A stretch of 62,542 nt of DNA, counting the filler, from Methanobacteriota archaeon (GTDB taxonomy: Archaea; JACRDV01): assembly GCA_024860865.1 (NCBI GenBank). It is 9 parts of 9 records of this genome, joined end to end, with 100 filler letters (N's around TTAATTAATTAA, not from the genome) between each part and the next. Parts side by side here need not be neighbours in the genome. Positions count along the whole stretch, not along the records: positions 19,579 to 25,228 come from JACRDV010000116.1; 8 more parts are not named here. One strand, 5' to 3'. Shown piece after piece: positions 8,420 to 58,073 of this stretch. The notes beneath the pieces are model-generated. The model ran no database searches and was not told the origin of the DNA. It was given only the letters and a program-made list of their open reading frames with translations. Position numbers and translations under genes: made by a program. Position 1 is the first letter of the stretch. Every line of letters begins with the position of its first letter.

Positions 8420-8519
8420 NNNNNNNNNNNNNNNNNNNNNNNNNNNNNNNNNNNNNNNNNNNNTTAATTAATTAANNNNNNNNNNNNNNNNNNNNNNNNN
8501 NNNNNNNNNNNNNNNNNNN
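8420..8519. other. Artificial contig linker (also 19479-19578, 25229-25328, 33831-33930, 37677-37776, 43497-43596, 52493-52592, 57974-58073)
   Basis: Identical 100-nt N-run/TTAATTAATTAA/N-run spacers with stops in all frames; genes broken on both sides. Confidence 0.98.
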
Positions 8520-9423: not shown

Positions 9424-10902
9424 ATGGCTCTTAGATTCATAACATGTCTAGTTGCAACAGAAAAATTTAATAAATTATCAAAAATAGTCGAAGATTCATC
9501 TAAAAAACGTGCTACAGTTTTAAGTGCACATATCTCCCCTAAAATTACTTTCGGCGTAGTTGTTGTTGTAGAAGACTATTTGGAGAAAGTCCTTCTCGCT
9601 TTAACGCAATTTGGAGTTAGAATTGTAGGTGTAATGGCGCTTAGCGTCGATGAGATAATTGCTCAATTAGATCGTTGCCTTTTAGATCTAAGTGAAGGAA
9701 AAGAAGAAGCATTAAAAGAAGTTGATGAACTCCCTGAAAAATGGCGCAAACAACTTTTAATTCTGAAAGACCAGTTATTAATTGAAGCTGAGCGATTAAA
9801 TGCTTATTCTCATTTTGGAAAAAGTGGCAATGAAGTTGTGGTCCATGGATGGGCCCCTGCGAAAGAAATTGGTAAGCTGACAAATCTTATAAATGAAGAA
9901 ACAAAGGGCACAGCCACAATCAGAGTTGCGATTCCCACTGAACTAGAAAAACCGCCAACTTTATTGGATAATCCAAGAATTTTTAAACCCTTTGAAAGGT
10001 TAATAGAAGTTTTTGCTTTGCCATTTTACCGAGAATTTGATCCGACTATTATTTTGGCAATTACTTTTACAATTTTTTTTGGGGTTATGGTCTCTGATGT
10101 GCTTTACGGGGCTTTAATTAGTTTCTTTGGAGTTGTACTAGCTTATAAAATTGGAAGGTTTGATAAATATCTACATGACCTTGGATTAATTCTCATCGGA
10201 GTTGGAATGTCCTCAATCATATTTGGTTTTTTAATAGGATCGGTCGTAGGCGGGCTAATTGTCCCAAAATGGAGTTTAATAAAGTTAACGCCAATAAATA
10301 TTCTATTATTTTTTGGGCTTGGTTTTTTATTTGGTGTTTTTCATATAAGCATAGGAATTTTAATTGCCCTTTGGAAAAATGTTAAGCAGAAGCTTTACTT
10401 GGCTGCTTTTACTGAGCAAGGAGTTTCTTTGCTTATCATATTGAGCTTGCTACTTATTGGAGCTGGATTAAATTTACCAAAATACCATTGGTTGATGGAT
10501 TTTGGGCCAATTTTTATTAAAATAGGGATGGCTCTTTTTGGAGCTTGTGTTGTTATAGCTATTGTTACATTTAAATTTGAAAGGGTAACTGGAATTATTG
10601 AAATTTTCGCGAGGGTGGTTTCATACTCCCGTTTAGTTGCAATTGCAATTTCTGGTGCTATGATAGCACATGCGATAACACTACTTGCACTTAAATTGAT
10701 GGCTTTATCGCTAATTGGTGTTATACTCGGTATTTTTGCAATGGTCATCGGTCATTTTTTGAATTGTGCTTTAGTAATAGTTGCCGCATTTATTCATTCA
10801 CTCAGGCTCGAATATGTTGAATTCTTTGGAAGGTTTTTCGAAACTTGGGGAAAAAAGTTTTCTCCGTTTAGAGTTGAGAGACAATTTACTGTTATCAGTT
10901 GA
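9424..10902 (+). CDS. atpI: A/V-ATPase subunit I, distal and membrane part (split gene)
   Basis: GWAP, PPTLLDNP, EFDPT, SYSRL (essential Arg), HSLRLEYVEFFGRFF. Confidence 0.88.
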   Translation: MALRFITCLVATEKFNKLSKIVEDSSKKRATVLSAHISPKITFGVVVVVEDYLEKVLLALTQFGVRIVGVMALSVDEIIAQLDRCLLDLSEGKEEALKEVDELPEKWRKQLLILKDQLLIEAERLNAYSHFGKSGNEVVVHGWAPAKEIGKLTNLINEETKGTATIRVAIPTELEKPPTLLDNPRIFKPFERLIEVFALPFYREFDPTIILAITFTIFFGVMVSDVLYGALISFFGVVLAYKIGRFDKYLHDLGLILIGVGMSSIIFGFLIGSVVGGLIVPKWSLIKLTPINILLFFGLGFLFGVFHISIGILIALWKNVKQKLYLAAFTEQGVSLLIILSLLLIGAGLNLPKYHWLMDFGPIFIKIGMALFGACVVIAIVTFKFERVTGIIEIFARVVSYSRLVAIAISGAMIAHAITLLALKLMALSLIGVILGIFAMVIGHFLNCALVIVAAFIHSLRLEYVEFFGRFFETWGKKFSPFRVERQFTVIS

Positions 10903-10916
10903 AATTATTCTAAACC

Positions 10917-11348
10917 TCAAGTCAACAACGTAAAAACATATTGAGTTGTAGTTGGAAGTTCTTTTCTAAGTTTCCTAATATCCGGCCGATATATGAAAAC
11001 TTTGTCTCCATTTGGCTTAACTCCAAGGATTTTGTTCACTAATTTACATTCCTCTTCTCCACGAATTCTTGCAATTCCAGTTCCAAACTCTGTTGGTCCA
11101 AGCTCAATGTAAATAGGCAGTCTCAATTTGTTGTGACAGTAGGTCGGTAGCAAAGAAGAGAGTTTTCTTAACTCTTCTTTTATAAATCTATGAGTGGATC
11201 CATCGCGACAAACTATTGATGGCTTCTCCTCTTTTAAAAGTTCAGCTAAGGTCTTCCTTTCCCGTGGCAGATGTTTGTTCAAAGCTTGAATCTGTTTTGC
11301 CAAAAGCTTGGACTCAATATCTTCGAAAGGAGTTCTCATTATTCTCAA
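10917..11348 (-). CDS. DUF61 family protein
   Basis: LNKHLP..RKTLAELL.E..P, LRLPI, LPTTTQY. Confidence 0.8.
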   Translation of the reverse strand: MRIMRTPFEDIESKLLAKQIQALNKHLPRERKTLAELLKEEKPSIVCRDGSTHRFIKEELRKLSSLLPTYCHNKLRLPIYIELGPTEFGTGIARIRGEEECKLVNKILGVKPNGDKVFIYRPDIRKLRKELPTTTQYVFTLLT

Positions 11349-11385
11349 TTAAAATCTGATAAAAAATACTAAAAATAGTTAAACT

Positions 11386-11769: not shown

Positions 11770-12425
11770 GCTGGTGCCTCTGTTACTTCTCTAGCTGCAA
11801 GAATAGATTTGATTCTTTTAAGCCTAAAGAAATTTTCTCGCTCCATTTCATCCAACCGCATCTCGATATATTTAGTGGTATTCTCAAGTCTTGGAATAAC
11901 TATATACTCAAGGGCATTAACCCTCCGCTTCGTTTTTTCAATTTCTTCAGCCAATAGCTTAACTGAAGTTTCAATTTCAGCTAGCTTTAATATAGGTTCA
12001 ATTGAATCTTCAAATTTATCAGTCGCTTCATCGAGTTTTGCTGAGGTTTCGCGCAGTTCATAACCACGTTCAATAACAGTTTTCTTTTCTCGTTGAGCCT
12101 CGATTAGTGGGACTAATACACCCATTATGTTCTTATTCGCAAAATCAACGCCAACCGACTCTTCCACGCTCATTGCGGCTTCTTGAGTAGTAAGAACGCC
12201 CATTACACTTTCTGCGATAATTAAGTGCTCGAAGGCTTCTCTAAGTAGTCTTTCCACATTGCCTCTGATTCCCCTAGCTTCCTCTATAACATCAAAAAGT
12301 TCCATAACAAGGGCATCTCGTTTTTCTTTGAGCAATTTATGCCCTTTTCTAGCTAATTTAACCCGCTCTTTTAATTTTAAGAGTTCCATCCTAGTTGGAT
12401 TTACGCCTTCGATTAGCTCTGCCAC
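11766..12425 (-). CDS. atpD: A-type ATP synthase subunit D
   Basis: [30 protein letters not shown]. Confidence 0.97.
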
Positions 12426-15420: not shown

Positions 15421-18400
15421 CTACTCTGCAGCAGTTTTTTCAATTAGCGTATCAAATTGAGTGCTTAATTTCTGGTGAATTTCTTTAATTTTCGCCTCAG
15501 CTTCATTTTCAGGTATTGTTTTCATCCTAGCAATTTCATCCTTAATTGGTAGCTTAACTATATCAGAAATTTGAACTCCTTTGTTAATAGCTTCTACACC
15601 TTTCTCATAGAACATCAAAATTGTTTTTAACATTGATATCTGCTTTTTAGCTGAGCAATATGTATCGACTGGATGGTAAGCATTTTGCTGTAAAAAGTCT
15701 TCTCTAATCATTCGCGCTCCTTCAAGAGTAATTCTCTCTCTCTCAGGCAATGCATCTGGACCAACTAGCATCACAATTTCTTTTAATTCTGATTCTTTCT
15801 GCAATATCTCCATAGCCCTTCCGCGGAGCATTCTCCAATCTTCTTTAACTGCTTCTTTCCACCAACTCTCAACTGTATCCAGATAAAGTGAATAACTTGT
15901 CAACCAATTGATGGCCGGGAAATGTCTGCGATCAGCAAGTGAGGAGTCCAATGCCCAGAAACACTTTGTAATCCTTAGAGTGCCTTGAGTAACTGGCTCT
16001 GAAAAATCACCTCCAGGAGGCGAAACTGCGCCAACAACTGTGACTGAACCTATCCTTTCATTCGAACCAAGGGTGACAACACGCCCAGCGCGTTCATAAA
16101 AATCAGCTAATCTTGAAGCCAAATAAGCCGGATAACCTTCTTCGCCTGGCATCTCTTCGAGTCTGCCAGATATCTCTCTCATTGCCTCAGCCCAACGGGA
16201 AGTTGAATCTGCCATCAAAGCAACATCATAGCCCATATCTCTGAAGTACTCACAGATAGTGATTGCAGTATAAACGCTTGCCTCCCTAGCAGCTACTGGC
16301 ATGTTTGAAGTGTTTGCGATTAAAGAGGTGCGATGCATCAGTGGTTTTCCACTTTTAGGATCGACCAATTCAGGGAACTCCTCTAGAACTTCTGTCATTT
16401 CATTTCCACGTTCACCGCAGCCGACGTAAACGATTACATCAGCATCTGCCCACCTGGCTAGCTGGTGCTGTGAAACTGTATTATGCAGAATCATCGGAGT
16501 ATTTCCACCTACAAAATTATGAGTTTGTGGAACAGTTATATCATAAACGTCAGACTCTACATCAATAACTTTAATTTCTATTGTTTCATCGCAGAAAACA
16601 TAATCCAAAGATTGTGCAAAATCTAATAAATGTTCCAATCGCACTTGCTTGACTATTCTTTGAAATGTTTGTACAGTTAAATTCTGGTCAACATAATAGC
16701 CCGCTGTTGAAATCCCTTCTTTTTCTAAAACAAAAGGTTTCGTATTTCCAAGTATCTTTTTAAACAAGGCGCTAGTCATCGGAACTATATCTGTCGAATT
16801 AAAGCAGAATTCTTTGTTAAAGAAAGGATGTATTTTAATAACTTCACGTGCTGTAATAAAAATCCTATAATAAGTTCGTCCCTTTACTATTCTTTCTCTT
16901 ATTCTAAATAAAACCCCTGTCCTTAAAAGCATATATGAAATACCATCTTTCATGTCATTGCTTGCAGTAGAAATTTCAATTTCATCATCAGTTAGGCTTC
17001 CATCGCCGCTTATATAAGATATTAAAAATGCTTTTATCACTGAATTAGGAGATGTTAATAAAATGTCCGGAGGCTTAACATTTCTTGATTTTTTCTTTTT
17101 TGGGTATCCTAACGAAACTAGTAGGTCAACGAGCGCTTTACTATTTACCTTAATAGCCTCAACTGTCCTTTCCCAACTATCTTTAGAGTCAAGATTAAAT
17201 AATTTTTTGAGTAGATAACTTACTCTGTCTCTTAGTTTCTTATTCCTATTAAAGAAAACTACAGTCCCCCTGCCTCTTACCATACCATCCGACATTAAGA
17301 AACCTAATAATGCTGCTAATTCTTCTGTCAGGTATTTTGGAACAGTAATGGGTTTAGATTGCCTTTCCGCTTTTATAAGTTGGAATTCTATTTCAGTTTT
17401 TGTTAGATTCTCTAGTTTTCTTATAAACGATATATGTGGCAGATTTTTCTTGGAATAATAACCTAGCAAATTATGGTAGGATACATCTAATAGTTTTGCA
17501 AATTCTTTTTTTGTTATTTTGTTCTTGTTGGAGATATATTCAGAAATTATTATACGCATCTTCTCGAGTGCATCACTATCAGCAATTCTACAATCGAAAT
17601 TAATATCAATATTAGAGTAGTCAGAATTTAATTCAAGTTTTCGGGGCGAAATTATAAAATCTCCTACTTTTAAGTTTTCTGCCTCTTTCTCTACAATTTT
17701 CAAATTGTCGCCTAAAGAAAAAAGCTTGTGTAATGGAGTTAACTTTATTTTTCTACCAGATCTGGTTTTTATTTCAATAAGTCTAGATGTTTTTCCCTTA
17801 TAGACCCGGGTGGCATATGTAGGGGATATCTTTTTACCATCAAAGGTATAAACAAGCAAAGGCTTTAAAAGTCTTATTACAGTTTCGTATTCCGAAATTT
17901 TTACAACTTCTCCTACAGCTGAATCAAAAACATCTTTGATTGTCTTTAATTGATTATTAGCTAAAATTTTTGTGTCGCCAGTGACACATTTTCCGCTGCC
18001 GAATGGGCCAGGTATTGCAGCCGTTCCACCCTTTGCTACTGGGAAAAATGTATCATAAATGCGTTGGCCAGTAACTAAAGGAATACTTGGGTCGAGTTTT
18101 CTTCTAAATGGTCTACCTCTTCTCACTGGCCAATGGTGCATCATTTGAACTTCTTTTTTTCCAGTTGTAGTGCTAATCACTGCTACAGTATCCTCGACAG
18201 TGTAGTCACCCTTTTCCGCGATCTCAACTATCTTTCCTGAGATTCCGGGTGGTACAAGAATTCGATGTTCAACAATTTCTGTTTCTTGAACTTTGCCTAA
18301 AAAATCTCCTTCTTGAATCTTATCACCTTTTTTAACTAAGGGCACAAAAGTCCACTTTTTATTTCGATCAAGTGCAGGCGCTTCAACTCCACGTTTTATA

Positions 18401-18705
18401 AAATTCCCAGATTTCAACTTAATTACTTCAAGCGGCCTTTGGATTCCATCAAAAATTCTATTCAATATACCAGGACCGAGCTCAACGGAAAGCGGTCGTC
18501 CAGTTCCCAGTACCTCTTCGCCTGGTTTGATTCCAACTGTTTCTTCATAAACCTGAATGCTCGCCCTATCTTCAACTAACTCAATTATTTCACCAATTAG
18601 TTTTTGCTCGCCAACCCTCACCATCTCGAACATTTTTGCTCCTCTCATTCCTTCAGCTACAACCAATGGACCAGTTATTCTCACTATTTTTCCTTTTACT
18701 ACCAA
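15421..18705 (-). CDS. atpA: A-type ATP synthase subunit A with intein (591 aa mature)
   Basis: GPFGSGK|intein|[29 protein letters not shown]. Confidence 0.97.
16480..17988 (-). mobile_element. Intein (503 aa) with LAGLIDADG endonuclease in the AtpA P-loop (VMA-b-type site)
   Basis: [41 protein letters not shown] followed by Thr. Confidence 0.95.
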
Positions 18706-19478: not shown

Positions 19479-19579
19479 NNNNNNNNNNNNNNNNNNNNNN
19501 NNNNNNNNNNNNNNNNNNNNNNTTAATTAATTAANNNNNNNNNNNNNNNNNNNNNNNNNNNNNNNNNNNNNNNNNNNNA

Positions 19580-19813
19580 ATTACAAATATCCGAGGTAAG
19601 AAGAAGACTTTTATTGTAAGTAAATTTATTGAGTACGATAGGATTAGAGGCGTAGGAAAAATAGCTCATGTGAAGGACGGTAAAGAACCTTCTTTAACAA
19701 GGTTAGCAAAGAAACTGGGCATTAAAGAAAAAGAACTATTGCGAAAAGGAAGAAAGTTAGACCTTTATGACATTGCAATACTGAAGAGGGACTTTAAAGA
19801 TGCTTTCGCCTAA
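19580..19813 (+). CDS. Integron cassette ORF 1 (5' partial, hypothetical)
   Basis: Open frame ..KRDFKDAFA; its TAA lies inside the attC R'' box GCCTAAC. Confidence 0.6.
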   Translation: MTNIRGKKKTFIVSKFIEYDRIRGVGKIAHVKDGKEPSLTRLAKKLGIKEKELLRKGRKLDLYDIAILKRDFKDAFA

Positions 19814-19896
19814 CACAGCATAAAAGGTTCGTGCCTTATGGCACTTACCCAAATTTTTGCTTTGCAAAAACTTCTTTTATGCTGGAGCCGTTAAAT
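19808..19896 (+). mobile_element. attC site 1
   Basis: GCCTAAC..CAGCATAAAAG..internal hairpins..CTTTTATGCTG..GTTAAAT (RYYYAAC/GTTRRRY with inverted repeat). Confidence 0.85.
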
Positions 19897-19910
19897 AGAT
19901 AAACATAGAA

Positions 19911-20138
19911 ATGGAGGTAAAAATTATGTACGAAAAAGATATCGAGGTGAAAGTGCGAGAACTTCCTGAAGATTTGAGGGGGGCGGTTTTAGATTATATG
20001 GATTTCCTACTACAGAAGTATAAGAGCAAGAAGGTCGCGGCGAAGAAGTTTAGGTTTAACTGGGAGGGGGGCTTATCAAATATCCGGAAGAAATTCACTT
20101 CCGTTGAGCTGCAACATAGAGCTTTGGAGTGGAGGTAA
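19911..20138 (+). CDS. DUF2281-like antitoxin (cassette 2)
   Basis: LPEDL..VLDY.DFLL.KY, WEGGL, TSVELQH. Confidence 0.8.
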   Translation: MEVKIMYEKDIEVKVRELPEDLRGAVLDYMDFLLQKYKSKKVAAKKFRFNWEGGLSNIRKKFTSVELQHRALEWR

Positions 20139-20272
20139 TGTTTTTAGTTGATACAAATGTATTTTTGGAAATCCTCTTGAGGCAGGATAAGAAAGAAGAT
20201 TGTAAACGTTTTCTGGACAATAATATCGGCAATCTCAACATAACAGATTTTTCTTTGCACTCCATCGCCTAA
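20138..20272 (+). pseudogene. PIN/VapC toxin truncated to 44 aa at attC site 2
   Basis: MFLVDTNVFLEILL..TDFSLHSIA*; TAATG coupling to the antitoxin; stop inside GCCTAAC. Confidence 0.8.
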
Positions 20273-20346
20273 CAGCGGATAAAAGGGAAATCAAAGATTT
20301 CCCCAAATTGCCTTCGGCAACCTCTTTTATCCGCAAAACGTTAGGC
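20267..20346 (+). mobile_element. attC site 2
   Basis: GCCTAAC-AGCGGATAAAAG..two hairpins..CTTTTATCCGC-AAAAC-GTTAGGC. Confidence 0.9.
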
Positions 20347-20370
20347 GAAACGAAATTTGGAGGGTAGTAA

Positions 20371-21030
20371 ATGGGTGAAATACTTGGATACGGAGAAGAT
20401 GCCTTTACCCTGTGGGCAATAAAGAAACTTATTTCTGAAATTCTTAATAAATTGAAAGACCGCTCAAGCCCATCAGATTGTCTTATATTTTTTCGCCCAA
20501 GTTTCGGTCGAAGTGGAGGCAAAGAGAGTGAACAATTCGGGGAATTCGATTCAATTCTAGCTTCTCCAGAAAACATATATCTGATAGAAAGTAAGTGGGA
20601 TAATTTTTCAGAAAATAAAGAGGATGAAATTGAACTTGAGCACGAACAAGTGTTACGGCATGAACTTTTTACATGGTATCACAAAAATTGGATGTCCCAA
20701 GGATATCGAGATTGGAAAGAATTTAGAACTGTACTACAAAATGATTTTGAAAGGAATTTTCTGGATAGAAAGAAGGCGATTGCCCCAGTGGGAAGCTTAT
20801 TGGCCGAAAATCTGGAGTTTGTATTAAGGAAGTTAAAAGAGCACTTTAAAGAATTTTCTTGTGTTTACAAAGAGCCAAAAAATGTCCTATTCTATTTTTA
20901 TAACAAAAATAGATCAAAAGAAATATGGAAAGTTAGATCTAAAGATGTAGATGTAAAAGATGTAAATTTCGAAGTAATAAATATTGATTACAGTCAATAT
21001 GTTTTGGGCAATTTCATTCACCTGGATTAA
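20371..21030 (+). CDS. Cassette 3 protein, possible PD-(D/E)XK nuclease fold
   Basis: EFD..YLIESK motif; fills the space between attC2 and attC3 with only an RBS in front. Confidence 0.6.
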   Translation: MGEILGYGEDAFTLWAIKKLISEILNKLKDRSSPSDCLIFFRPSFGRSGGKESEQFGEFDSILASPENIYLIESKWDNFSENKEDEIELEHEQVLRHELFTWYHKNWMSQGYRDWKEFRTVLQNDFERNFLDRKKAIAPVGSLLAENLEFVLRKLKEHFKEFSCVYKEPKNVLFYFYNKNRSKEIWKVRSKDVDVKDVNFEVINIDYSQYVLGNFIHLD

Positions 21031-21039
21031 TTTCGCTTC

Positions 21040-21092
21040 GCCTAACAGAGCGTATCTGACTTCGTGCCTTCGGCACTACGCTCAAATTCCCT
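21040..21092 (+). mobile_element. attC site 3, right half missing
   Basis: GCCTAAC-AGAGCGTATCTG..GTGCC-TTC-GGCAC..CAAAT resembles attC1; no complementary arm or GTTRRRY follows. Confidence 0.65.
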
Positions 21093-21181
21093 AAGACAAT
21101 GGGGTTCTAACAGGGTTCTAACCATGCTAGACTAGTAAACTTTAGAGGATTGAGCACACAGATTGGACAATTAGAAAAGAG

Positions 21182-21358
21182 ATGGGTAAAAACTTCGGTG
21201 AAATGCGAGATAGATATGGGATAATATCCGAAAAATTCACGGACGCTATCGAAACGTTTCAAAAAGAATCTATAAAAACTAGAAAAGAAATGGTAAGGGC
21301 TGTTAACAATTTGTCAAAGTTGGTACAAGAATTCATAAGACGAGCTAGAAGCAAATGA
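21182..21358 (+). pseudogene. Short coiled-coil gene remnant
   Basis: 58-aa frame MGKNFGEMRDRYGIISEKF..; probably the 3' part of a larger gene. Confidence 0.3.
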
Positions 21359-21475
21359 GATGCATAGATAATGAATTAAAAACCTAATTCTTTGTTGCTT
21401 TTTCATTAAAATGGATTTTTGTAAAATATTATATTTTTAATTATTTTTTAAACCTAAAAATTCGGTGATAATTAG

Positions 21476-22543
21476 TTGAAACTCGGGATTGTTTATCACG
21501 AGAATTACCTTAAACATAATTTTGGTCCAAACCACCCTGCATCACCTGAACAATTAGCTCTCACCGTAAAAATTCTCCAAGAAAAACAAATTTGGAACGA
21601 TCCGAGTGTAACAATTTTATCTCCAATTACTGCAACTGAAGAAGATTTAAAAAGCGTCCATGATCCTGCATTTATCTCGCTGATAAAGAAATATAGTGAA
21701 ATCGGCGGTAGCTTAACTGCTGATACTCCAATTCCTGTTGGAAGTTTTGAATTTGCAAAATTAGCGGTGGGCGGAGCAGTAGTTGCTGGTGAGGCTATAG
21801 TAAAAGGCCAAGTTGACTCTTCTTATGCTCTCACACGGCCTGGAGGCCATCATGCTGGTATAACAAGCTCTTCAGGTTTTTGCTATTTTAATGAAGTAGC
21901 AGTGATGGTTGAGAACTTAAAGAAAAAATATCACCTTAAAAAAGCCATGATTGTTGACTACGATGTGCATCACGGCAATGGGACTCAAGAGATTTTTTAT
22001 GAAGATCCAAATGTCCTGTATATTTCAACCCATCAAGATCCAAAAACGCTCTACCCAGGAACTGGATTTATTTGGGAGGTAGGTTCTGGAGCTGGAGAAG
22101 GATTTACAGTAAATATTCCATTGCCACCGAGAACCGGACACCGAGCTTATTTGCATGCTTTTGATAATATCGTTGTTCCAGTTGCTCGCGAATTTAAGCC
22201 TGAGCTAATAATTGGATATGTTGGTGCAGATGCACATTTTTTAGATCCTTTAGCAAATCTTGATTTAAAGCTTGAAACATATACCCAAGTCGCAAAGCGA
22301 ATCATATCTTTAGCAAACGAAATGGAGAGCAGGTTAGTTTTCTTTTTTGCCGGGGGTTATAATATCCAAGTAGTTCCCCAAGTTCATCTAACTACAATTG
22401 CGACTATTCTTAATAAATCAGTTGAACTAAATGAACCAAAAACTCCACCAAAGGAGTTCCCAAGTATTATTCGAAGAGTTGAAAAACTTACTTTGGAAAT
22501 TCGCGAAAATTTGAAACCATATTGGAAATGTTTTAAGATCTAA
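21476..22543 (+). CDS. Histone deacetylase/AcuC family protein
   Basis: RPGGHHA, GFCYFN, DYDVHHGNGTQ, DAHFLDPL. Confidence 0.93.
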   Translation: MKLGIVYHENYLKHNFGPNHPASPEQLALTVKILQEKQIWNDPSVTILSPITATEEDLKSVHDPAFISLIKKYSEIGGSLTADTPIPVGSFEFAKLAVGGAVVAGEAIVKGQVDSSYALTRPGGHHAGITSSSGFCYFNEVAVMVENLKKKYHLKKAMIVDYDVHHGNGTQEIFYEDPNVLYISTHQDPKTLYPGTGFIWEVGSGAGEGFTVNIPLPPRTGHRAYLHAFDNIVVPVAREFKPELIIGYVGADAHFLDPLANLDLKLETYTQVAKRIISLANEMESRLVFFFAGGYNIQVVPQVHLTTIATILNKSVELNEPKTPPKEFPSIIRRVEKLTLEIRENLKPYWKCFKI

Positions 22544-22571: not shown

Positions 22572-23618
22572 CTATGTTTGAAACCAATCGGAGTGACTTT
22601 CATCCATTAAATACTTATCACTAATAATTCGAACGAGTAATCTAGTATGCTTATTACTGGGAACATCAAGGTGTAATGTTATAGTAGCTTTTGACCCGGT
22701 ATCTAGATTAAATGCATCACTTTCCTTTGGATTGTAAACATAATTTTCCCCAGCATCAAAAGCTGCATACACTTTAACATTATGCGCCGCTGCTGTCCCA
22801 ACATTTTCAACAATGACAGTTAATTCCATGGTATCAATTAGAATGCTGCGCGTTCGAGTTCCAGTCCAAGTGTGAGTAAGCACAGCTTTTGGTAGAAGAT
22901 GATATAATTTTACAGTAGAATCCTTATACTCATCTGGAATTTGCCCAATTTTCCAACCATCACCAGTAGTTTCTAAATAAAAGTACTTTTTTCCATTTTC
23001 CGTATAATAGGCTCCATAGATGCCCTCTCCTCCCAGAATACCTACTGCCATGTGCTTAGGCAATTCAATCAACACAACATCATAATTCATCTTATTGAGG
23101 AGAGCTGCAGTTAGTATTGAAGTATCTTCGCAATCTCCTCCGTGGTCAACAAGAGTTTCTATAGGATACCTTGGATATTCATCGAAACCAGTTGTTACAA
23201 TATCTGGAGTATATTGGAGGCTCTGCACAAAAGCTATTACAAAATTAACCTTTTCGTATTCGTTATATCCTTTTTTTGCAGTAGCCTCATCAAACTGTTT
23301 TATGAGACTCTCTATGTATTGGTCATCAAAAGGATCAGTTATATAAATTGAATAATCTTTAGTAGGTAGCCTAGGTCTATTTTTGTAGTATTCGTATAAC
23401 GATCTAGGTATTTTTAGGTCCCATTTCCATTTTGCGCCGCCATAGCCCATTTCGTAATGCCTAGTTATAGTTTCAGCAGATTTTGGAGGCGGATAAATGG
23501 TAGCCGAATAATTTATGCTTGGTTCTGGCGTCTTAGTACTTATACATCCTGATATCAATATTACAAAAACAATCAGCGTTAATATTGTATTCTTCAATTT
23601 TTGCCTCGATAAATTCAC
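22572..23618 (-). CDS. Lipoprotein with transglutaminase-like Cys-protease domain and Ig-like C-terminus
   Basis: LISGC lipobox, YPIETL..GDCEDTSIL, HMAVG, YLETT. Confidence 0.8.
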   Translation of the reverse strand: MNLSRQKLKNTILTLIVFVILISGCISTKTPEPSINYSATIYPPPKSAETITRHYEMGYGGAKWKWDLKIPRSLYEYYKNRPRLPTKDYSIYITDPFDDQYIESLIKQFDEATAKKGYNEYEKVNFVIAFVQSLQYTPDIVTTGFDEYPRYPIETLVDHGGDCEDTSILTAALLNKMNYDVVLIELPKHMAVGILGGEGIYGAYYTENGKKYFYLETTGDGWKIGQIPDEYKDSTVKLYHLLPKAVLTHTWTGTRTRSILIDTMELTVIVENVGTAAAHNVKVYAAFDAGENYVYNPKESDAFNLDTGSKATITLHLDVPSNKHTRLLVRIISDKYLMDESHSDWFQT

Positions 23619-23807: not shown

Positions 23808-25070
23808 ATGAAAGCCCATATCAACCTAGTATTTATAGGTCATGTGGATCATGGTAAGTCAACATTGATTGGTAGAATGCTCTTCGATGCTGGAATGATT
23901 TCTGAAAAAGATCTCCTTAAGCTTAAAGAATATGCAAAAGCAATTGGAAAGGAAACCTTTGAGTTTGCATTTATTATGGATAAGTCGCGTGAAGAACGAG
24001 AGCGCGGTTTAACAATTGATATAGCATATAAAGAGCTTTCAACGCCAAAAAATGACATAACAATAATCGATGCCCCTGGTCATCGTGACTTCGTTAAAAA
24101 TATGATCACTGGTGCTTCACAAGCTGATGCAACTGTTTTAGTTGTAGCTGCAGATGATGGAGTTATGCCTCAAACAAGAGAACATGCTTTTCTTGCAAAA
24201 ACACTTGGCATCCGTCAAATTATTGTTGCGATCAATAAAATGGATTTGGCTAACTATAACCAAAGCAGATACGATATGATAAAAGCTGATGTTGAGAAAT
24301 TATTGCTCTCAATTGGCTATAAGCTAGAGGAAATTACTTTCACTCCAATTTCAGCGTTTCACGGAGACAATGTCGTTAAAAGAAGTTCAAAAATGGGTTG
24401 GTATGATGGATTAACTGTTTTCGAAGCTCTTGATCAACTTAAGCCACCTCTAACAAAGCCAGTTGATAAACCTCTGAGAATTCCAATTCAAAACATATTT
24501 TCCATTAAAGGTGTCGGTGCTGTTCCAATCGGCAGAGTTGAAACTGGAATTTTGAAAGTTGAGCAAGAAGTGATTTTTGAACCAGCCCATGTGAAAGCTG
24601 AAGTAAAAAGTATTGAAATGCACCATAAAAAATTGGATAAAGCTGAACCCGGCGATAACATCGGTTTTAATGTGCGCGGCATCAGCTCAACTGACGTTCA
24701 AAGAGGGGATGTTTGTGGGCCAATCGATAACCCCCCACTTGTGGCTAAAGAATTTGTTGGGCGTATAATTATACTTGAGCATCCCACTTCAATTTCTTTA
24801 GGGTATACCCCTGTACTGCACTGCCACACTGCAACGGTTCCATGCGTTTTCACAGAGCTAATTCAAAAACTCGATCCAAGAACTGGTGCTGTTATTGAAG
24901 AAAAGCCAAAGATGTTAAAGAAAGGGGATGCTGCTGTGGTTAGATTAGTGCCAACTAAACCTCTAGTAATCGAGAAAGTTAGCGATTTCCCGCCATTAGG
25001 AAGATTTGCTCTAAGGCATGGCGGTCAAACAGTAGCAGTTGGCATGTGCATTGAGGTAGTCTCTCGATAA
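23808..25070 (+). CDS. tuf: Translation elongation factor EF-1alpha (possibly a paralog)
   Basis: GHVDHGKST, RERGLTID, DAPGHRDFVKNMITG, NKMD, domains II and III. Confidence 0.9.
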   Translation: MKAHINLVFIGHVDHGKSTLIGRMLFDAGMISEKDLLKLKEYAKAIGKETFEFAFIMDKSREERERGLTIDIAYKELSTPKNDITIIDAPGHRDFVKNMITGASQADATVLVVAADDGVMPQTREHAFLAKTLGIRQIIVAINKMDLANYNQSRYDMIKADVEKLLLSIGYKLEEITFTPISAFHGDNVVKRSSKMGWYDGLTVFEALDQLKPPLTKPVDKPLRIPIQNIFSIKGVGAVPIGRVETGILKVEQEVIFEPAHVKAEVKSIEMHHKKLDKAEPGDNIGFNVRGISSTDVQRGDVCGPIDNPPLVAKEFVGRIIILEHPTSISLGYTPVLHCHTATVPCVFTELIQKLDPRTGAVIEEKPKMLKKGDAAVVRLVPTKPLVIEKVSDFPPLGRFALRHGGQTVAVGMCIEVVSR

Positions 25071-25328
25071 AATTAACAAATTCATAGTATAAGGATAAAA
25101 CGAGAAAAACTTATAAGAAACAAATTCTATGAAAAGGCATTTGCTTCTAAATATTATGCTCATGAAATGAAGATTAAATTTGAATCGGGTGTTACCTTGC
25201 CCAATGATTCACAACCCAAGAGAGGAACNNNNNNNNNNNNNNNNNNNNNNNNNNNNNNNNNNNNNNNNNNNNTTAATTAATTAANNNNNNNNNNNNNNNN
25301 NNNNNNNNNNNNNNNNNNNNNNNNNNNN

Positions 25329-33830: not shown

Positions 33831-33930
33831 NNNNNNNNNNNNNNNNNNNNNNNNNNNNNNNNNNNNNNNNNNNNTTAATTAATTAANNNNNNNNNNNNNN
33901 NNNNNNNNNNNNNNNNNNNNNNNNNNNNNN

Positions 33931-37407: not shown

Positions 37408-37776
37408 AAGTTCACCCTACAATAAGATTAATTACTAGAATTGGTAAATATAATTTTGGTAAATATAATTTTGGAACTCAACGTTTATAAAACCATCCCC
37501 TAGCATATAGCAACCCAATTAAAGTTATAGAGGCAAAAACTAAAATATTACCAGTAAACAATAATGAGATTGAAAGCTGTATATAACTTAGATACCAAAT
37601 CCAAACTCCCGCTCCTAAAAAGCAAATTAGAATAACTGTAAAAGTTAATCTATATGGCTTAACTTTTAAAACTCTANNNNNNNNNNNNNNNNNNNNNNNN
37701 NNNNNNNNNNNNNNNNNNNNTTAATTAATTAANNNNNNNNNNNNNNNNNNNNNNNNNNNNNNNNNNNNNNNNNNNN

Positions 37777-43496: not shown

Positions 43497-43596
43497 NNNN
43501 NNNNNNNNNNNNNNNNNNNNNNNNNNNNNNNNNNNNNNNNTTAATTAATTAANNNNNNNNNNNNNNNNNNNNNNNNNNNNNNNNNNNNNNNNNNNN

Positions 43597-52492: not shown

Positions 52493-52592
52493 NNNNNNNN
52501 NNNNNNNNNNNNNNNNNNNNNNNNNNNNNNNNNNNNTTAATTAATTAANNNNNNNNNNNNNNNNNNNNNNNNNNNNNNNNNNNNNNNNNNNN

Positions 52593-57806: not shown

Positions 57807-58073
57807 ATCTGAGTAATTATGAAAAAGATGTTTCAACTTGCAAAAATTGCAGTTTTTACTGAGAAAATTGCAGTCAACTTTTTTTAAACAAATTGAACCG
57901 CGAAATAATTTTATACAAATCATTTTAATAAAATTCAACTTCACTTTTTTGTTAGTTGCAAAAAAAAAATAAANNNNNNNNNNNNNNNNNNNNNNNNNNN
58001 NNNNNNNNNNNNNNNNNTTAATTAATTAANNNNNNNNNNNNNNNNNNNNNNNNNNNNNNNNNNNNNNNNNNNN

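Follow-up and report, generated by a model that had tools for sequence, protein, structure and literature searches.

Probable decaying orphan remnant of an integron-type cassette array on a contig with archaeal genes, and the wider family of its sites

The array and its sites

The window analysed here is the whole stretch of 62,542 bases taken from the genome assembly of a Methanobacteriota archaeon, and consists of nine contigs (3.7-11 kb) joined by eight N44-TTAATTAATTAA-N44 linkers. Since the contigs are separate, gene neighbourhood across any linker carries no meaning. The element in question lies at the beginning of one contig (19579-25228, 5650 bp, GC 0.367), where short co-oriented open reading frames (ORFs) alternate with folded sites, here named S1, S2 and S3. 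The first-pass annotation had described an archaeal integron cassette array with three related attC sites. The cassette array is real and of integron type, and no integrase is seen with it, but what is left of it amounts to two sites and a half-site, their geometry is non-canonical, and it is probably an orphan remnant of the kind termed CALIN (cluster of attC sites lacking integron integrases). Archaeal integrons and CALINs have been published, and the criterion quoted for the latter, in the relevant passages of Ghaly et al. (2022, Sci Adv, PMC9668308), is at least two attC sites less than 4 kb apart with no integrase. The starts of the two attC-like sites S1 and S2 are 459 nt apart, and no integrase is found on the contig.

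Two of the sites are complete and have the lengths and ends first described for them. S1 (19808-19896, plus strand, 89 nt) runs from GCCTAAC to GTTAAAT and S2 (20267-20346, plus strand, 80 nt) from GCCTAAC to GTTAGGC. The R'' and R' boxes of both fit RYYYAAC and GTTRRRY, and S3 has an R'' box only. Plus-strand copies of GCCTAAC occur at 19808, 20267 and 21040; by itself the heptamer is not rare in the window (6 occurrences vs 4.85 expected). Both complete sites fold as three-way junctions, in agreement with the branched internal hairpins reported earlier, with z-scores that range from -5.0 to -7.4 over the two strands, and none of 200 shuffles was equally stable (DNA folds of -18.4 kcal/mol, z -4.96, for S1 and -19.8 kcal/mol, z -5.75, for S2). 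Model R1 places S1 and S2 in one family at 95.4 bits each (E 3e-18, all positions 1-95), the minus strands scoring 16.2 and 20.1 bits, respectively. In a search of the 62.5-kb window, R1 gave no plus-strand match under E 0.04 outside the array sites. A search of Rfam at E≤1 and a blastn search of plasmids with S1 both returned no match.

The third GCCTAAC palindrome of the first-pass annotation exists as the 5' half of a full-length site. S3 (21040 to about 21091, plus strand) comprises R'', the L'' arm, hairpin 1 and the CAAATT junction, and R1 aligns its outer 5' part alone (19.3 bits, E 0.063). In an alignment with seven full-length sites of the S3 sub-type, taken from other contigs, S3 resembles them until about 21091 and is unrelated to them beyond, hairpin 2, L' and R' being absent. 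A contig of metagenome run X4 that matches up to 21090 carries on into exactly the L' arm that S3 lacks.

A function of these sites in the opposite orientation was suspected since the extra spacer bases sit on the R' arm. The minus strand was rejected on the difference between about 95 bits on plus and 16-20 on minus for S1 and S2, and also because family ORFs end just before GCCTAAC and homology between loci breaks at R'.

Cassettes and their proteins

Cassette 1 (19579-19890, plus strand) is partial, being cut by the contig start at 19579; a contig break just upstream of the array had been recognised from the start. Its 47-aa ORF (19670-19813) has its stop within the R'' box of S1 and shows weak helix-turn-helix-like Pfam matches only (E 0.04-0.11). 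Cassette 2 (19891-20340, plus strand) is a decayed toxin-antitoxin cassette. It encodes an intact DUF2281/VapB-like antitoxin (19911-20138, plus strand; PF10047 at 3.8e-14, and NF050009 TA_VapB at 9.7e-07, under its cut-off) followed by a fragment of a PIN toxin (20129-20272, plus strand), which holds the first 47 aa, covers profile positions 2-36 of 120 and stops inside the R'' box of S2. The VapBC-like pair is thus incomplete, with the antitoxin intact and the toxin not full-length. A deletion may have removed the remainder of the PIN toxin together with the site that belonged to cassette 2, and possibly further cassettes.

Cassette 3 (20341 to about 21091, plus strand) carries ORF3 (20371-21030, 219 aa). 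The earlier claim that the stops fall within R'' holds for the ORFs of cassettes 1 and 2, but ORF3 stops 10 nt upstream of the GCCTAAC of S3. The ends of this cassette, 20340-20357 and 21029-21046, are complementary at 17 of 18 positions, as had been noted. As S3 is a half-site, cassette 3 is expected to be fixed in place.

ORF3 belongs to an unnamed family of at least 919 homologues of about 210 aa, none with a Pfam domain, in which D60, E73 and K75 are invariant (a D...ExK motif). Its structure model has a predicted local distance difference test score (pLDDT) of 89.8; Foldseek gave 0 matches in the PDB at E≤0.001, and VIA-align gave a top Z of 6.7 (NucS), below the tool's clear level, with a list made up mostly of PD-(D/E)xK nucleases. 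These structural matches are weak but uniform, and suggest a PD-(D/E)xK-like fold for ORF3, a statement of fold likeness only. No homologues of the window's cassette proteins were found among the 119 metagenome loci listed in the next section.

The site family across metagenomes

At least 119 metagenome contigs (loci, labelled L) with near-identical sites were matched by a strict two-arm pattern derived from the arms of S1 and S2, which yielded 120 sites. The alignment, A2, contains 116 distinct sites and was folded with RNAalifold, and the covariance model R1 has 95 positions and 20 pairs. Compensatory changes occur in 13 of the 20 pairs of this consensus fold. There are three sub-types, one for each site of the window, which differ in L-stem sequence and share a common architecture.

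Model R1 has 185 matches at E≤0.1 in 100 of these loci, which total 555,645 bases, and 35 more in the 19 that remain. Many of these matches form co-oriented arrays with a spacing of 0.5-1.5 kb, exemplified by nine sites in 9.8 kb in L118. The control, 71 loci of 1,225,205 bases in all (64 around archaeal EF-1alpha genes and 7 from class 1 integrons), gave 1 weak match at E≤1, and class 1 attCs are not detected by R1 at that threshold. A simpler one-arm pattern had 4 matches in IMG/VR, each without a partner arm, and these were taken as chance.

The position of the sites relative to genes is polar. A same-strand ORF ends no more than 30 nt upstream of the site in 66 of 108 cases and no more than 100 nt upstream in 92 of 108, and an opposite-strand ORF ending by the far end of the site was seen in only 10 of 102. 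Cassette ends were compared in 30 arrays with 97 sites and 67 cassettes, cassette 2 of the window included. The first R' of a cassette and its own last R'' were complementary at all 7 positions in 35 of the 67, and the mean complementarity of 6.03 was not reached in any of 2000 shuffles (shuffled pairs 4.97 +/- 0.11); the two boxes of one single site have a mean of 4.82. Where homology between loci ends away from contig edges (n=110), 20 ends lie within 8 nt of the G of R', the ORF side being the one that is shared, and another 2 fall on the start of R''. The polarity of the ORFs, the matching cassette ends and the homology breaks together indicate that the mobile unit is an ORF with its downstream site, and that it is cut at G|TT. 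In its arrays and in its crossover position this family behaves as attC sites do.

In the metagenomes that contain the window's contig, from groundwater and other sources, summed contig depth on S1 and S2 was 140-1478 vs 3-14 on the flanks, and many different sequences leave each side of the sites. Depth and flanks therefore mark the sites as high-copy elements present in many contexts.

The recombinase and attI-like site of the family

The arrays are associated with a tyrosine recombinase. Homologues or fragments of it (E≤1e-9) were found in 13 of the 119 listed loci, upstream of the sites and co-oriented with them in 12 of the 13; the copies in L108 and L193 are near-identical. At the same threshold the recombinase was absent from 80 control loci (1.2 Mb). 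Its best relative among solved structures is VchIntIA (2a3v, E 2e-42), and its core is 33% identical to IntI1. The insertion specific to IntI, located around patch III, is missing, with 18 aa in the recombinase vs 60 in VchIntIA. TIGR02249 aligns in two stretches with positions 179-233 skipped, about 41 aa of IntI1 have no counterpart, and archaeal XerA (PDB 5hxy) aligns in one piece, end to end. A conserved N-terminal extension of about 110 aa is also present. The 119 loci contained no canonical IntI, all tblastn hits of IntI1 among them being these insertion-less recombinases. Look-alikes of the recombinase in the Protein Atlas are bacterial integrases, mostly of Bacteroidota, which is a weak lead.

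Seven recombinase genes have a readable 3' end, and in each of them a conserved attI-like region ending in ..GTTA(G/T).. lies 72-142 nt past the stop. The profile of this region matches about 25 loci at E≤1e-8. Copies of the attI-like element are also present without a recombinase in view (L139, 2434-2530 and 4718-4801; L115, 9533-9637; L189, 174-268), sometimes two to a contig, and integrase-free array heads seem common.

Two further arrangements were observed. In L092 (6061-11381) there is a tandem pair of insertion-less recombinases, each with a family site before it and its own attI-like region after it. In L162 (3065-4172) and L192 (153-1199) the recombinase is divided over two ORFs, the break falling between the N-terminal extension and the core; either a frameshift, pseudogene decay or an error of sequencing could account for this.

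Linkage to archaeal genes and host range

The contig of the array carries, as first reported, an archaeal EF-1alpha gene (23808-25070, plus strand; TIGR00483, 662 bits, cut-off 540). Among 185,579 species genomes the best identity to its product is 63%, from which it follows that the archaeal host has no near relative among sequenced genomes. According to the assembly, the array would lie 2.7 kb from EF-1alpha on the chromosome of an archaeon, and we consider it quite likely that array and chromosomal genes are physically linked.

Contigs from four metagenome runs, X1, X2 and X4 among them, were placed along the array contig. In run X1 the depth of the ORF3 unitigs (6 and 3.3) is comparable with that on the core genes (3.4-9.9), and the cassettes, with GC 0.34-0.38, match the rest of the contig (0.31-0.40). 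The right flank of the array (21085-21480) has no likeness in the 119 listed loci. Joints seen in the run contigs have sides of 20-27 nt that resemble other variants of the site.

The family also adjoins archaeal genes elsewhere. In L198 (5971-12072, GC 0.53) archaeal PheT (TIGR00471, 570 bits) and PheS lie 2 kb from family sites, and the locus holds a recombinase fragment (10071-10217) and two sites (11264-11360 and 11971-12072). This locus appears as a second archaeal setting, in a lineage other than that of the window (GC 0.53 vs 0.36). A lone degenerate family site of 26.7 bits (L048, 1658-1751) precedes EF-1alpha by about 280 nt in a metagenome-assembled genome (MAG) of Woesearchaeota, a neighbourhood of the same kind as that in the window. 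The host range of the site family may be mixed.

Interpretation and alternatives

The stretch 19580-21091 is probably the distal part of an integron-type cassette array in decay, of a family served by an insertion-less recombinase related to IntI. In this model a cassette would be an ORF followed by a folded recombination site, and the recombinase would insert and excise cassettes by cutting between the G and the TT of the right-hand box. Such a cut means that each cassette would begin with TTRRRY, the complement of the RYYYAAC at its end. A folded single strand would be the substrate, and this recombinase would be the enzyme that acts on the sites. On other contigs, arrays of the family are headed by the co-oriented recombinase and then the conserved attI-like site. 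This head is not in the window because the contig starts inside cassette 1, and at the tail the array is broken, S3 being a half-site. With neither recombinase nor attI-like site in the window, the partner of the sites has been deduced from other contigs, and the array is an orphan remnant that could be acted on in trans only. Cassette 2 would have lost most of its PIN toxin along with its own site, and recombination between S1 and S2 could still excise it, given a recombinase in trans.

The likeness to bacterial chromosomal and class 1 integrons is considerable, and includes the RYYYAAC and GTTRRRY boxes, the folded imperfect palindrome, the G|TT crossover and the opening bases of a cassette that complement its own closing box. 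Near-identical sites within one lineage are also a feature of the Vibrio repeats. Integrons are defined by an integrase whose insertion reads the bulged bases of a folded attC, and it is here that the present family departs from them. Class 1 attCs were taken from plasmid records (aadA2, aadA5 and aac(6')-IIc, the 3 of 9 cassettes that the script resolved), and in these the spacers are 5 nt and 5-6 nt and L'' is 2 nt longer than L'. The family sites, in contrast, have a spacer of 1 nt in the R'' arm and of 5 nt in the R' arm, and an 11-bp L stem that is unbulged. Two hallmarks of attC, an unpaired central spacer close to 5 nt in each arm and extrahelical L'' bases, are not seen in them. Unlike bacterial integrons, the family also has a terminal structure that is always a three-way junction, a recombinase that is co-oriented with the cassettes and not divergent, and an attI-like site with two palindromes of its own. 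Another system in which a Xer-type recombinase moves gene modules between short repeated sites is that of the Xer-dependent dif modules of Acinetobacter plasmids. The dif sites there are short duplex XerC/XerD sites in alternating orientation, and not folded, co-oriented, daisy-chained sites of 80-100 nt.

The recombinase, with its 33% core identity to IntI1, resembles the 'integron-like' simple tyrosine recombinases of Smyshlyaev et al. (2021, PMC8138268), and differs from that subgroup and from XerA in its additional conserved N-terminal domain of about 110 aa. In the passages of that paper that concern them, the insertion is held to be essential for integron function and the insertion-less members are not tied to cassette arrays. 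A literature search found no paper that links an insertion-less recombinase to cassette arrays. The archaeal CALINs of Ghaly et al. share with the present array the integrase-free attC-type clusters in archaeal MAGs, the small co-oriented ORFs and the cargo of toxin-antitoxin and nuclease type, as far as described in the relevant parts of PMC9668308; unlike the recombinases of the present family, the six IntIs described there have the IntI-specific domain. What is new here is a family of non-canonical sites whose apparent partner lacks the defining IntI insertion, and the supplements of PMC9668308 may already include this MAG or its sites.

Several observations weigh against our reading. Some concern the family as it was defined: GCCTAACA, ATAAAAG and CTTTTAT were forced by the strict pattern, so that their invariance in A2 is a product of selection by that pattern, and the 30 arrays of the cassette-end test were chosen by eye and not exhaustively. 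The pair L092/L174 loses homology at the start of R'' and not at R', and the end boxes of cassette 2 in the window agree in only 4 of 7 positions, counted by hand. The recombinase was met with in just those 13 loci of the 119, most of which are short, and the fragment in L096 is convergent with its array. The window itself has no recombinase (top tblastn E 0.40), and the attI-like profile finds nothing in it at E≤10. As to the host, none of 5 genomes had a match to the strict pattern, nor did any of the 401 genomes searched of one DPANN phylum (that of a Woesearchaeota MAG), and at least one locus, L151, looks bacterial, with a resistance-nodulation-division (RND) permease. Finally, the array stops in the middle of a high-copy repeat, a place where assemblers err; 21091-21308 is spanned by no contig of the placed runs; and in run X2 a relative with about 95% identical core genes has depth 11-14 on these, and ORF3 depth 0-2.8.

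These last points bear on the possibility of an assembly chimera, in which an array from another organism, bacterial or archaeal, was joined to the archaeal genes at the truncated repeat near 21090. A site family that is high-copy in the same metagenomes (140-1478 vs 3-14), with many loose ends, would invite such a join, as would a break inside the repeat. Run X1 has no cover at 21091-21308, with a depth of 0.07 over 21091-21279, and in run X2 the unitig of the relative, which has the core genes and almost no ORF3, begins at 21171. The depth contrast in X2 suits strain-variable cassettes or a mis-join equally well. Against a chimera speak the GC, which matches, the depth in run X1, which is alike on both sides, and the adjacency of the family to archaeal PheS/PheT in L198. 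The sequence beyond 21091 is moreover not site-like, and a k-mer join would therefore require a partial site on the archaeal side too. On balance a chimera seems unlikely. The same can be said of a classical CALIN, that is, ordinary attCs like those of the archaeal integrons of Ghaly et al., with a canonical IntI whose gene lies past the contig start or at some other place in the genome. The boxes fit the attC consensus, VchIntIA is the solved structure against which the recombinases score highest, and palindromes, small co-oriented ORFs and a toxin-antitoxin cassette are the layout given for archaeal CALINs in the relevant parts of PMC9668308, where IntI1 is also stated to have recombined eight of nine archaeal attCs tested. 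The spacers of 1x5 vs 5x5-6 and the unbulged stem, relative to the three class 1 attCs, argue against it, and so do the insertion-less recombinases, which are all that IntI1 retrieves from the 119 loci, their orientation with the arrays and their conserved N-terminal extension. It is highly improbable that the sites serve no recombination, and are a structured RNA repeat (terminator or stabiliser of the upstream genes) or an element resembling a miniature inverted-repeat transposable element (MITE). A structure kept through compensatory changes and placed directly after stop codons would suit an RNA, but no Rfam family matches at E≤1, daisy-chained boxes and homology breaks at G|TTA are predicted by cassette exchange and not by an RNA motif or a transposon, and a dedicated recombinase and attI-like site go with the arrays.

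If the preferred reading of a decaying integron-type array is followed further, the window sites may be an archaeal instance of a second integron class. We put this forward tentatively. Such a class would provide widespread gene capture in archaea and bacteria, with an attI and an attC geometry of its own (three-way junction, 1x5 spacer and no extrahelical bases) and a co-oriented integrase, related to IntI, that functions without the insertion regarded as essential for the recognition of folded attC DNA. The abundant site family has the hallmarks of integron exchange together with sites without bulged bases and an integrase without the insertion, and strand choice and site recognition would then have been solved otherwise than in known integrons. 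If the pairing of sites and recombinase is functional, integron-type capture is broader, mechanistically and taxonomically, than assumed by detection tools, since these demand the insertion. An overlooked partner would then exist for many orphan attC clusters of archaeal and groundwater genomes, and the claim that the insertion is essential would be directly testable with the recombinase, the attI-like site and S2. The window alone is modest in this respect, being a decayed orphan array notable mainly for sharing its contig with an archaeal marker gene.

Other features of the contig and the window

The junction between the array and the core genes (21092-21475) contains a 58-aa ORF (21182-21358) and two direct copies of GGGTTCTAAC (21102-21111 and 21113-21122). 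A candidate recombinase remnant in this junction (21143-21244, minus strand) was rejected as not significant: tblastn gave E 0.71, the full profile nothing at E≤10, and the C-terminal profile E 1.7 at third rank. The stretch adjoins the GGGTTCTAAC repeats directly past the half-site S3. No tRNA genes were found in the array contig.

Between the junction and EF-1alpha, the same contig encodes a protein of the histone-deacetylase family (21476-22543, plus strand; PF00850, 2.2e-88) and a transglutaminase-like lipoprotein (22572-23618, minus strand). The linkers between the nine contigs of the window are at 8420-8519, 19479-19578, 25229-25328, 33831-33930, 37677-37776, 43497-43596, 52493-52592 and 57974-58073. 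On another contig, a gene for the catalytic subunit of an A/V-type ATPase (15421-18705, minus strand, 1094 aa) seems, on the translation alone, to contain an intein-like insert that interrupts it.

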